Shown here: positions 9,320 through 59,421 of the stretch, piece after piece
Layout: every line of letters begins with the position of its first letter
How positions within the stretch are numbered: position 1 is the first letter of the stretch
NCBI RefSeq assembly: GCF_963921235.1
Contig: NC_086097.1
Span: 105,712,001-105,776,000 of the forward strand
Direction: 5' to 3'
DNA: 64,000 bases
Source of the DNA: Mobula hypostoma
Lineage: Eukaryota
Notes under the pieces: generated by a model
Database searches by the model: none
What the model was told of the DNA's origin: nothing
Seen by the model: only the letters and a program-made list of their open reading frames with translations
Translations under genes and position numbers: made by a program

Positions 9320-9503
9320 AACAAAGTGCTGGAGGAACTCAGCAGTTCAGATGCTTCTATGGGGGAAAATCATCTGTTGACATTTTGGGCCAAGACTCCT
9401 CAGCAAGACTATTGAAGGGTCTCAGCCCCAAACATTGACTATTCATTTCCATCCATAGATGTTGCCTGACCTGCCTAGTTCCTCCAGTATTTTTTGTGTG
9501 TTG
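9320..9503. mobile_element. Old fold-back Penelope pLTR relic (imperfect palindrome) with decayed hammerhead
   Basis: GTGCTGGAGGAACTCAGCAG...GTTGACATTTTGGGCCAAGACTC is mirrored by GAAGGGTCTCAGCCCCAAACATTGACT...GTTCCTCCAGTATT. Confidence 0.65.
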
Positions 9504-17837: not shown

Positions 17838-18210
17838 CGCAAACACGAGGAATTCTGCAGATGCTGGAATTTCAAGCAACACACATCAAAGTTGCTGGTG
17901 AACGCAGCAGGCCAGGCAGCATCTCTAGGAAGAGGTACAGTCAACGTTTCGGGCCGAGACCCTTCGTCAGGACTAACTGAAGGAAGAGCTAGTAAGAGAT
18001 TTGAAGGTGGGAGGGGGAGGGGGAGATCCAAAATGATAGGAGAAGACAGGAGGGGGAGGGATGGAACCAAGAGCTGGACAGGTGATAGGCAAAAGGGATA
18101 TGAGAGGATCATGGGACAGGAGGCCTAGGGAGAAGGAAAAGGGGGAGGGGGGGGGGAACCCAAATGCTGCCTGGCCTGCTGCGTTCACCAGCAACTTTGA
18201 TGTGTGTTGC
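17838..18210 (-). mobile_element. Penelope pLTR-only insertion with short inverted arm (~18163-18210)
   Basis: A 13-bp TSD AGCCATTTATGAT lies at 17825-17837 and 18211-18223. The sequence is homologous to 1790-2098. Confidence 0.9.
17939..17974 (-). ncRNA. Minimal hammerhead ribozyme in Penelope pLTR
   Basis: The reverse complement reads AGTC CTGACGA A GGG TCTCGG CCC GAAA CGTT GACT (GUU triplet). Confidence 0.7.
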
Positions 18211-54734: not shown

Positions 54735-57700
54735 GTGAGTATAGTTTATATGTTAAACTTTATACAGAACATTGAATTAAAATGGAGTAAAAGTATATAA
54801 AGCACTCAACTGGACTCCCCATGTAAATATTGTGACTGCTAGATGGGTTAAGGTGCAGTGTGTGACCAACCTGATGCCCCAAGGCCTTCCATCTTCCATT
54901 AGGCACAAGTCAGGATTGTGATGGAATAATCTTCACTAGCCTGTACTGCTCTAAGAAATCTCAAGAAGCCAGACACCATCCAGGATACAGCAGCCCATTT
55001 TGATTGGCACCCCATCCATCACCCAAAATGTTCATTCCCTGCACCCTAGTGCACTGTGACTATAGTGGTGTTCTTTCTGCAAAATGCACCCACTTCAACA
55101 GAACCTCTTGAAGTCACTGCCTCCCCTTATTGAGGGGAGCACCATTAACTGTTACAGGACCAGTGCTACGTCCATTGTTTGTCATCTATACCAGCAATCT
55201 AGATGATAATGTAAACTGGATCTGCAAATTTGCAGATGACCCCAAGACTGTGGGCATTGTGGACAGTGAGGAAAGCTATCAAAGCCTGCAGCAGGATCTG
55301 TACTGGCTGGAAGGATGGTCTGAAATATGGCAGATGGAATTTAATGCAGATACTGCAAGTGTGATGTGTTGCACTTTGGGAGGACAAAGCAGGGTAGGAT
55401 GTACACAATATCATTGAGGAGGGCCATAGAATAGAGAGATCTGGGAATACAGATCCATAATTCCCTGAAAGTGGCATCAAAGCTAGATAGGATCCTAAAG
55501 AGCGGTTCTGACACATTGACCTTCATAAATCAAAGTATTGCGTACAAGAGTTGAAAAGTTGTATTGAAGTTGTATAATATATCGGTGAGGCCTAATTTGG
55601 AGTATTGTGTGCAGTTCGGATCATCAACCTACAGGAAAGATGGCAATCAGATTGAAAGAACACAGAGAAAACTTACAAGGATGTTGCCAGGACTTGAGTT
55701 ATATGGAAAGGTTGAATTGATTAGGACTTTACTCACTGCTGCATAGGAGAATAAGAGCAGATTTGATAGACATCTACAAAATTATGAGTATAGATGAGAT
55801 AAATGCAAATGGGCTTTATCCACTGAAGTTGGGTGAGATTAGAACTAGAGGTCATGGGTTAAGGGTGAAGGATGAAATATTTAAGGAGAACCTGAGGGGA
55901 AACTTATACTGTCACTCACAACACACTGGAGGAAGTCAGCAGGTCAGGCAGCATCCGTGGAAATGATCAGTCAACATTTCGGGCTGGAACCCTTCGTCGG
56001 GACTGAAGAGGGAAGGGGCAGAGACCCTATAAAGAAGGTGGGGGAGGGTGGGAAGGAGAAGGCTGGAAGGTTCCAGATGAAAAACTAGTAAGGGGAAAGA
56101 TAAAGGGGTGGGGGAGGGGAAGCGGGGGGCGGGACAGGCAGGAAAGGTGAAGAAGGAATAGGGGGAAGCACAATGAGTAGTAGAAGGAGGCGGAACCATG
56201 AGGGAGGTGATAGGCAGCTGGGGGAGGGGGCAGTGTGAAAATGGGATAGGGGAAGGGAATTACTGGAAGTTGGAGAATTCAGTGTTCATACCCAGGAGCT
56301 GGAGACTACCCAGACGGTATATGAGGTATTGCTCCTCCAACCTGAGTTTAGCCTCATCATGGCAGTAGAGGAGGCCATGTATGGACATATCTGAATGGGA
56401 ATGTGAAGCAGAGTTGGAGTGGGTGGCTACTGGGAGATGCTGTCTGTTGTGGCGGACGGAGCGGAGGTGCTCGACGAAGCAGTCCCCCAATCTGCGTTGG
56501 GTTTCACCGATGTAGAGGAGGCCGCACCGGGAACACCGGATGCAACAGATGACCCCAACAGACTCACAAGTGAAGTGTTGCCTCACCTGGAAGGACTGTT
56601 TGGGGTCCTGAATGGTTGCAAGAGAGGAGGTGTAGGGACAGGTGTAGTACTTGCGCTTACAGGGATAAGTGCCGCGTGGGAGATCTGTGGGGAGGGACGT
56701 GTGGTCCAGGGAGTCGCAGAGAGAACGAACCCTGCGGAAAGGAGGATGGAGTGAGGGCCGAAGTGCAGGAAATGGAGGGTGAGGGCATCATTGATGACGG
56801 CAGAAGGGAAACCACGATCCTTAAAGAAAGAGGACATTTGAGATGTCCTGGAATGAAAAGCCTCATCCTGGGAGCAGATGCAGTGGAGACGGAGGAACTG
56901 GGAATAGGGAATAGCATATTTGCATGTGGCAGGGTGGGAAGAGATATGGTCGAGGTAGTTATGAGAGTCAGTGGGCTTATAGAAGATGTCAGTGGATAGT
57001 CTGTCTCCAGAGATGGAGACCGAGAGATCGAGAAAGAGGAGAGAAGTGTCTGAGATAGACCAAGTGAATTTGAGGGCTGGGTGGAAGTTAGAAGCAAAGT
57101 CAATGAAATTGACGAGCTCAGCATGGGTGCAGGAAGCAGCACCAATGTAGTCGTCAATGTAGCGAAGGAAAAGTTGGGGAGCAGTACCAGTATAGGTTTG
57201 GAGCATAGACTGTTCCACATAACCAATGTAGAGGCAGGCATAGCTGGGGCCCATGCGAGTGCCCATATCGACTTTGCTTCTAACTTCCACCCAGCCCTCA
57301 AATTCACTTGGTCTATCTTGGACATTTCTCTCCCCTTTCTCGATCTCTCGGTCTCCATCTCTGGAGACAGACTGTCCACTGACATCTTCTATAAGCCCAC
57401 TGACTCTGATAACTACCTCGACTATACCTCTTCTCACCCTGCCACATGCAAAAATGCTATTCCCTATTCCCAGTTCCTCCGTCTCCGCCGCATCTGCTCC
57501 CAGGATGAGGCTTTCCGTTCCAGGACATCTCAAATATCCTCTTTCTTTAAGGATCATGGTTTCCCTTCTGCCGTCATCAATGATGCCCTCACCCGCATCT
57601 CCTCCATTTCCTGCACTTCGGCCCTCACCCCATCCTCCCGTCACCACAACAGGGACAGAGTTCCCCTTGTCCTTCACCTACCACCCCACCAGCCTCCGGA

Positions 57701-57962
57701 TCCAGCACATTATCCTCCGCAACTTCCGCCACCTTCAACAGGACCCCACCACTAAGCACATCTTTCCCTCTCTACCCCTCTCCGCTTTCCGCAGGGATCA
57801 TTCCCTCCCCGACTCCCTGGTCCACACGTCCCTCCCCATGGATCTCTCACCCGGCACTTATCCCTGTAAGCGTAAGTGCTACACCTGTCCCTACACCTCC
57901 TCTCTTGCCACCATTCCGGGCCCCAAACAGTCCTTCCAGGTGAGGCAACACTTCACTTGTGA

Positions 57963-58180
57963 TACACATCAAAGTTGCTGGTGAACGCAGCAGGCCAGGC
58001 AGCATCTGTAGGAAGAGGTGCAGTCGACGTTTCAGGCCGAGACCTGACGAAGGGTCTCGGCCTGAAACGTCGACTGCACCTCTTCCTACAGATGCTGCCT
58101 GGCCTGCTGCGTTCACCAGCAACTTTGATGTGTGTTGCTTGAATTTCCAGCATCTGCAGAATTCCTGTTGTTTGCGTTTA
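57963..58180 (+). mobile_element. 218-bp fold-back Penelope mini-element nested in another Penelope
   Basis: A 13-bp TSD ACTTCACTTGTGA lies at 57950-57962 and 58181-58193. The arms are a perfect 81-bp inverted repeat (57964-58044 / 58053-58133). Confidence 0.92.
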
Positions 58181-58692
58181 ACTTCACTTGTGAGTCTGTT
58201 GGGGTCATCTATTGCATCCAGTGTTCCCGGTGCAGCCTCCTCTACATCGGTGAGACCCGACGCAGATTGGGGGACCGCTTCGTCGAGCACCTCTGCTCCG
58301 TCCGCCACAACAGACAAGATCTCCCGGTTGCCACCCACTTCAACTCTGCTTCACATTCCCATTCGGATATGTCCATACATGGCCTCCTCTACTGCTGTGA
58401 TAAGGCCAAACTCAGGTTGGAGGAGCAACACTTCATATACCGTCTGGGTAGTCTCCAGCCCCTTGGTATGAACATAGAATTCTCCAACTTCCAGTAATTC
58501 CCTCCCCCTCCCTTCCCCTATCCCAGTTTCACTCTGCCCCCTCCCCCAGCTGCCGACTACCTCTCTCATGGTTCCGCCTCCTTCTACTACCCATTGTGCT
58601 TTCCCCTATTCCTTCTTCACCTTTCCTAGCAGCATTCTCCTTCTCACCCACCCCCCCCACCTTCTTTAAAGGGCCTCTGCCCCTTCCCTTTC

Positions 58693-58730
58693 CAGTCCTG
58701 ACGAAGGATTCCGGCCGGAAACGTTGACTG
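58693..58730 (+). ncRNA. Minimal hammerhead ribozyme of second Penelope subfamily
   Basis: Sequence is CAGTC CTGACGA AGGATTCCGGCCG GAAA CGTT GACTG. Stem I is CAGTC/GACTG; stem II is weakened. Confidence 0.65.
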
Positions 58731-59421
58731 ATCGTTTCCACAGATGCTGCCCAACCTGCTGAGTTCCTCCAGCGTGTTGTGAGTGTTGCTTTGACCCCAG
58801 CATCTGCAGAGTGTTTTGTGTTACACTCAGAGGGTGGTGAGAATGTGGAATGAGCTGCAGAAGGTAATGGTGAATGTGGGTTTGATTTCAACATTTTAGA
58901 GAAATTTAGATAGTGCATGAATGGGAAGGGTATGAAGGGCTATGTGCGGGTTGAGGTGTGGGTTGATGACACTGGGCAGGCACTAGATGGGCCAAAAGCG
59001 CCTGTTTCTGTGCTCGTGTTCCATGAGAGTGAAGAATGTAATCATTCGATTGTACAACAGAGAAGGTCATGTTTTTGCTAGCTTCTTTGAAGAGCCAGCT
59101 GTTTAGTCACACTCCCTGGATCTCTTTCCAAACTTCTGCATGTTTTCCTTCTTGATAATTTACCCACCTGCTTCCAGTGTGTTCTAGATCACCACAACTC
59201 ACAGTTATATGCGATATTAGTTACATGGAAATATAATGGAGTGAGGTGTGCTCTGAGAGGCAGCAGAGAAGGAAACAGATGAAATATGAATATTAAGTTC
59301 TCTCTTCTGCTCCTTTTACCAAGTCTGTTGTTTTGAAATTAAAAGGAGTATGCTCATTGCTCATCCAAGCACACACAGATAACTGGTAATAATTTTGCTT
59401 CTTTCCATTAACTTCATCTAG

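Follow-up and report, generated by a model that had tools for sequence, protein, structure and literature searches.

Penelope/Poseidon-type elements that encode an endonuclease (EN+) insert as a composite unit, described as a 5'-truncated copy with an adjacent inverted truncated copy, a tail of 30-40 bp and a target duplication (PMC8557442, PMC3846280). The order of inverted truncated copy, direct copy and tail is the textbook Penelope insertion (PMC8557442, PMC8969392). For the Poseidon element of Anolis (PAc), an in vitro study reports that both target strands are extended and that two reverse transcription (RT) starts bound the tail (PMC11167929). Pairs of minimal hammerhead ribozymes on opposite strands, 100-700 bp apart, have been noted in Schistosoma (PMC4209133); these are probably the same two-armed truncated insertions, mentioned there only briefly, without junction mapping or a mechanism. 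The origin of the tandem and inverted structures of Penelope and the role of the hammerhead are both given as open questions (PMC8557442, PMC11167929).

Here we analyse a hairpin at 57950-58193 of a 64,000-nucleotide stretch of the Mobula hypostoma genome, referred to below as the window. We find that the hairpin is real and young but ordinary: minimal Penelope insertions of this kind form a very large class. The two-armed unit itself was already known; what is new here is a pile-up of arm ends 1-5 nt upstream of the CUGACGA core of the hammerhead.

Anatomy of the hairpin and its host

The insert measures 218 bp, contains no coding sequence and is enclosed by a 13-bp direct repeat, ACTTCACTTGTGA, at 57950-57962 and 58181-58193 of the plus strand. 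Its left copy lies in the GIY-YIG sequence of a host Penelope, and in the inverted arm of that host the same 13-mer occurs a single time, at 56564-56576, which corresponds to the empty site; the repeat is therefore a true target duplication. Between the two copies lie arms of 81 nt each (57964-58044 and 58053-58133), 100% complementary and spaced 8 nt apart, so that the perfect inverted repeat within a 13-bp duplication, as originally described, is confirmed. The hairpin strand folds with -188.5 kcal/mol (z -25.9), and 0/200 shuffled sequences folded equally well.

In the element numbering used below, 0 is the first C of CUGACGA, at 58044. Inverted-repeat comparison places the inverted arm at 57963-58044 of the minus strand (element +89 to +9, plus an unmatched T at 57963), and this arm is presumably cDNA that the nick in the top strand primed, beginning at the upstream of the two RT start sites. 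The direct arm (58043-58180, plus strand) runs from element -1 to +136 and includes the tail, 47 nt present on one arm only (58134-58180, plus strand; tail as defined in PMC8557442 and PMC11167929). Comparing the hairpin with the parent sequence revealed a 2-nt microhomology at the fold junction, CC at 58043-58044, common to both arms. The first 8 nt of the right target duplication agree at 7/8 positions with the continuation of the element in a natural read-through copy.

The direct arm is 97.8% identical to 1963-2098 of the window, against about 76% identity to the host family in the same part. The matching segment belongs to a longer two-armed insertion (872-2096) that has a target duplication of its own and an intact hammerhead context, the core being at 1967, and the assignment of the hairpin to the subfamily at 872-2094 was thus correct. 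The host, at 55913-58810, is also a two-armed insertion, but older and from a second Penelope family, with an inverted arm (~55913-57104) and a direct arm (~57267-58810) that are 91-95% alike. As had also been proposed, the insert breaks the endonuclease frame of this different Penelope, between QHFTC and ESVGVIY, just ahead of the GIY-YIG motif, and the host frame downstream of the insert gives a Pfam GIY-YIG match above the cut-off. The host Penelope itself apparently lies inside older LINE-like sequence, and a clear target duplication was not seen around it. A further two-armed insertion of the hairpin's subfamily, on the minus strand and with its own target duplication, is found at 17838-18210. 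The hairpin at 9320-9503, cited earlier as an older case, is real and similar in design, but it is decayed (65% self-match) and nearer to the host family (76%) than to the hairpin's subfamily (71-74%).

A long copy of the parent contains an open stretch of 812 aa in which RVT_1 (E 2.8e-4) is followed by GIY-YIG (E 7.9e-4), both below the Pfam cut-off, and the pLTR is located after this ORF; from the domain order, the parent is probably of the Penelope/Poseidon clade. The features of an EN+ Penelope are present, namely a parent with RT and GIY-YIG, an inverted copy with a tail, a target duplication and a predicted hammerhead motif. Like the canonical Penelope/Poseidon unit, the hairpin has head-to-head arms, a tail on one arm, a target duplication and a minimal hammerhead in the pLTR, and its parent ORF combines RT with a C-terminal GIY-YIG. 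Unlike that unit, it lacks coding sequence, and the minimal form makes up about 40% of insertions here. The long ORF of one long copy (L163:1430-2000) seems to begin only downstream of the ribozyme, at about +87 or beyond, and the frame through the core contains stops; the Anolis element differs in that its ORF starts at helix II.

By hand reading, the parent carries a minimal type I hammerhead consisting of the core CUGACGA, a 3-bp helix II, GAAA and a palindromic ACGU; helix I would pair AGUC (-4 to -1) with GACU (+28 to +31), and the predicted cut falls after +27. A remnant, read by hand against the motif in PMC4209133, occupies 58044-58075 of the plus strand, with the core at 58044-58050, helix II at 58052-58063, GAAA at 58064-58067, the predicted cut after 58071 and the helix I 3' strand at 58072-58075; the helix I 5' strand is absent. 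The hairpin loop had been equated with the hammerhead core. The fold does lie at the core, but the first C of the core is within the stem, and since the helix I 5' strand AGUC is exchanged for AGAC, the ribozyme of the hairpin is broken. Helix II is sequestered in the hairpin (pair probability 0.0), and in the parent RNA helices I and II have predicted pair probabilities below 0.005. An Rfam search did not match a hammerhead. A microRNA precursor was rejected, as the Rfam matches to mir-3926 (53 vs 82 bits) and mir-2007 (33 vs 100 bits) are sub-threshold, generic hairpin matches. At 1975-1986 of the window, helix II of the young subfamily is closed by G-U (…GGCCT GAAA), which departs from the conserved G10.1-C11.1 pair, while older copies have G-C (…GGCCC GAAA).

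Recurrence across the genome

A search of the 3.48-Gb genome with the exact 20-nt junction, a check put forward with the original prediction, returned 183 matches (reversed control, 0), so that this junction is not unique. A different junction is commoner, with 404 occurrences, and folds within 30 nt of the ribozyme, recognised as a pattern between two helix II flanks, occur at no fewer than 2,387 loci, at least, with many different junctions. The first 30 exact-junction loci, out of 183, comprise 28 hairpins of the same kind and 2 loci that are not. In 9 of these 28 the core-bearing arm also has the tail, and in 19 the tail belongs to the opposite arm; at least 6 haplotypes are represented, and the outer ends vary. 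Only 3 loci are identical over the central 144 nt, and there both outer ends differ and one has another variant. The same junction with varied haplotype, polarity and outer ends indicates recurrent production and not the copying of a master; the claim that the hairpin had transposed as a unit was not upheld.

One of the explanations offered earlier was a non-autonomous MITE- or retrozyme-like hairpin family, in which a 218-bp unit is copied from masters. The 183 exact matches and the three loci sharing 144 nt would fit such a family, as would the derivation of retrozymes from Penelope pLTRs, stated in a preprint (bioRxiv 10.64898/2026.07.22.740005). They are countered by the differing outer ends and the extra variant at those three loci, by the occurrence of the junction in both polarities and many haplotypes beside a commoner one, by a haplotype mix that is equal in short and long copies (p 0.40), and by a ribozyme that is broken and single, with no tandem array. 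We regard this explanation as already largely refuted and as very improbable. A separate short master was rejected on the same shared haplotype mix, and a MITE family of unit length on the variation of ends, polarity and haplotype among the 28 same-junction loci and of length (149-268 bp). MITE terminal inverted repeats extending to both ends were also rejected, the 47-nt tail being outside the repeat on one side.

Like the non-LTR retrozymes of that preprint (bioRxiv 10.64898/2026.07.22.740005), the hairpin is short, non-coding and derived from a Penelope pLTR, with a type I hammerhead motif. Retrozymes as characterised there form head-to-tail tandems with a complete ribozyme in each unit, whereas the hairpin is single and head-to-head with a broken one. 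Under the definition in the preprint and in PMC6765202, it was rejected as a non-LTR retrozyme: there is one head-to-head unit, the helix I 5' strand is lost and helix II is sequestered. Elsewhere in the genome, locus L167 (G000:C1:46047316-46048220) holds three head-to-tail units of the hairpin's subfamily, ~435-440 bp each and composed of pLTR, hammerhead, tail and ORF start, in a retrozyme-like tandem. A candidate full-length tandem at C1:60617804/60620810 proved to be two separate insertions.

For a sample that did not depend on the junction, we anchored insertions on tail motifs and fetched part of the listed places; all loci in the samples are from one contig, C1. After removal of duplicates, 246 insertions remained (99, 89 and 58 from three lists of 100). 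With a short hairpin defined as one in which both arms end at -36 or later, short hairpins account for 91 of the 246 insertions, and within the least selective of the sets for 40 of 99. The tail motif has 64,102 occurrences genome-wide, and scaling the 40% to this number would give approximately 26,000 short hairpins in the genome. Their length is 149-268 bp (5th-95th percentile, n=91). An own target duplication accompanies 86/91 of them (2/90 in a swapped-flank control), measuring 13-19 bp, chance extension included. The host family, sampled separately, yielded 30 short hairpins among 70 insertions. The recurrence, the many junctions, the share of short hairpins and their own target duplications identify the hairpin as a known structure in its smallest form, the Penelope unit of inverted truncated copy, direct copy and tail.

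The perfect arms had been taken to imply a very recent event. Two-armed insertions without a mismatch over +12 to +89 are common (20/86), and this reduces the estimate: the hairpin is among the younger ones. Fold-back chimeras are a known assembly artefact, and among the contigs listed none spans the hairpin insertion, as would be expected if the hairpin were such an artefact or the later deletion collapse of a long palindrome. These contigs, from three runs, consist largely of other copies of the family, one run of raw reads yielded 0 reads, and loose contig ends resembling the empty site may derive from other host-family copies. Against this stand the exact target duplication with its empty site, the same anatomy with duplications at 86/91 loci, the arm mismatches in most other hairpins (66/86), and solo copies in which a duplication adjoins the same stop. 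It is extremely unlikely that the hairpin arose in either of these ways.

Starts, stops and coupling of the two arms

The outer end of the inverted arm lies at +84 to +105 in 115/132 cases, with a median of +95 in every class, whichever arm reaches further and with long copies included. Tails in the sample end near +129 to +136 (median ~+130). Starts near +95 and +130 match the two RT starts bounding the tail, and the extension of both strands, reported for Anolis (PMC11167929). A further likeness to Anolis PAc is the use of uncleaved RNA as template, as the arms here cross the predicted cut site. The Anolis work maps RT starts, not stops, leaves the joining of the two ends open and describes the target and the start site as lacking homology. 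Here, by contrast, among 49 two-armed insertions (L046-L365), the target duplication overlaps the continuation of the inverted arm by 1-5 nt in 34/49, which suggests short primer-template pairing at the RT start.

The two arms of an insertion are coupled. Both are short in 91 insertions, both are long in 33 and only 8 are mixed (p 2e-22), and in 9/32 long pairs the two ends are no more than 45 nt apart, against 2.3 expected by permutation. At 459/506 diagnostic positions the arms of one insertion agree (0.91, where permutation gives a mean of 0.56 and at most 0.65). A further 24 variants are common to both arms, against 159 that are arm-specific. The proposal of a minimal product of two-ended reverse transcription is thus backed by arm, junction and duplication statistics, and we consider it very probable that twin priming on one RNA is followed by end-to-end joining through microhomology or added bases. 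In LINE-1 twin priming, both nicks prime cDNA, the 5' part is inverted, the join is by microhomology and a single target duplication results. The two LINE-1 parts span different stretches of the RNA, whereas here the starts are 35 nt apart, at constant positions within the RNA, and the same stretch is copied, giving a hairpin.

The coupling of the arms is equally expected if one cDNA folds back on itself. Such self-priming, in which a single cDNA halts close to the core, pairs with itself at a local inverted repeat and is then extended along its own sequence, would account for identical arms and coupled ends; the region contains short inverted repeats (CCTTC/GAAGG, AGTC/GACT, GTC/GAC), and work on rotifer elements proposes it for Penelope inverted junctions (PMC3846280). 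However, the tail-less arm extends further 5' in 49/91 short hairpins, which is impossible by fold-back of a tail-primed cDNA, and its outer end stays near +95 in all classes. Solo copies halt at the same place with no fold-back, and loop-free junctions exist at self-complementary words such as TA, CG, AT and GTCGAC, which fit the joining of two ends better. Self-priming is therefore improbable, and survives only as a variant in which both nicks are primed and one strand snaps back.

In the other direction, arm ends pile up at one place. Positions -5 to -1 hold 64/378 ends, 37.8 times the rate at -1200 to -50, with the mode at -3 and the next most frequent end at -4; ends at 0 to +6 (27/378) are 9.8 times background, and a shoulder at -36 to -10 is about 6 times background. 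Ends are those of maximal alignments, for which an error of 1-2 nt is possible. Solo copies share the peak, 16/102 ending at -10 to 0, and in several the target duplication directly adjoins -3 or -8. Since the peak windows were picked after the first histogram, p-values are descriptive, and the second Penelope family serves as the independent check. It repeats the pile-up with a broader peak, its ends being 20 times background at -6 to -1, 12 times at 0 to +12 and 3 times at the cut site.

The stop point is thus a stretch of 5 nt immediately 5' to the core, neither the catalytic core nor the cut site, and this clustering at one spot sets these insertions apart from the canonical unit as described. 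The predicted cut site at +27 to +29 holds 5/378 ends (3.5 times background, p 0.015), of which two share a 4-nt microhomology with the partner arm, and stops there were rejected as the main cause. It had been predicted that RT stalls or switches at the ribozyme, with junctions enriched there and not uniformly scattered. The enrichment was found, but the stop lies past the whole ribozyme. As RT enters from the 3' side of the ribozyme and stops after copying all of it, neither self-cleavage nor a simple stall on the folded ribozyme fits well. Our literature searches returned no account of stops clustering at the hammerhead's 5' edge; Fig. S2 of PMC11167929 may already show it for Anolis.

Candidate causes of the stop and their implications

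We favour, with moderate confidence, the reading that the hairpin is a minimal Penelope-like insertion made on the spot by two-ended RT, with the stop at the 5' end of the RNA. Taken alone, the identification of the stop as the RNA 5' end is somewhat favoured; transcription would then probably start at A-4 or A-8. Both lie in what we take to be pyrimidine-A initiator-like words, TTAGTCC and TCAGTT. In 6/20 arms ending at A-4 or A-8, CGA(A) lies beyond the end, the same sequence that is found at +4 to +7, weakly suggesting that RT jumped at the template end, and some of these bases may come from the partner arm. A cap signature was not enriched, G preceding 5/20 of these arms. Four sets of RNA-type contigs, which are unreliable for both features, listed neither an element start nor a splice joint at the candidate AG. 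Given the shoulder at -36 to -10, run-off at the RNA end needs extra, dispersed starts.

The sequence upstream of the core also resembles a 3' splice site. At 1935-1966 of the window and in equivalent copies, TACTCAC/TACTAAC, a pyrimidine tract and an AG lie just 5' of the hammerhead, and the host family has a pyrimidine tract and an AG at the equivalent place. In D. virilis, transcription starts 46 nt before a 75-nt intron, the end of which maps to helix I (PMC2377424, PMC4209133). This layout, together with the splice-like sequence here, means that the true start may be further upstream. A spliced template was rejected, as no upstream exon recurs and duplications adjoin -3 or -8 directly.

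Taken with the intron end in D. virilis, the splice-like stretch makes a roadblock by splicing factors the main rival to run-off at the RNA 5' end. Twin priming would again occur de novo, and RT would be blocked just past the core on a longer, unspliced RNA, either by splicing factors on the splice-site-like signal (branch point ~-19, pyrimidine tract, AG at -8/-7 or -4/-3) or by an element protein bound on the ribozyme fold. The edge of the peak coincides with AG -4/-3 in both families, and the shoulder covers the pyrimidine tract and the TACTAAC/TACTCAC motif. Penelope elements retain introns, which fits an unspliced template; an intron ending at helix I is on record in D. virilis (PMC4209133); and a roadblock requires no cap signature. 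The coupling of the arms would be equally expected, if the leading enzyme clears the block. On the other side, the fold itself should halt RT at its 3' edge (+28 to +32), next to a cut site with so few ends, the predicted pairing of helices I and II in the parent RNA is minimal, and, as weak evidence, no spliced joint at this AG is listed in the four contig sets. We judge a roadblock to be unlikely, though with an appreciable chance.

Under the favoured reading, in which the stop is the RNA 5' end, a staggered target cut would let both of its strands act as primers on a single element RNA, where RT would begin at two internal start sites. Both cDNAs would run off the RNA 5' end just upstream of the hammerhead core and would be joined end to end, either through microhomology of 0-6 nt or with a few bases added. 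The element RNA would hold the priming site twice, so that priming at the copy near the RNA 5' end would give hairpins of ~220 bp and short solo copies, and priming at the 3' copy would give long, randomly truncated copies. The product, its ribozyme broken and buried, would likely be dead on arrival. In a wider and more tentative form, to which we give somewhat less than an even chance, vertebrate Penelope RNA would start at the first base of helix I with a priming site ~100-135 nt downstream, and a dimeric RT would copy one RNA twice, beginning at two start sites, to its 5' end.

From these young minimal products both points at which RT starts can be fixed, together with a sharp stop point, and their class statistics constrain the mechanism of transposition; the data argue against self-cleavage setting the template end and for two cDNAs from one RNA. 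Such hairpins are liable to be misannotated as MITEs or microRNA genes. If the proposed mechanism is true, tens of thousands of hairpins would form a fossil map of the 5' end of the retrotransposition template, and the origin of the inverted repeats of Penelope would be explained. In that case the hairpins would, in addition, supply perfect double-stranded RNA from across the genome, directed against the 5' end of the element itself.
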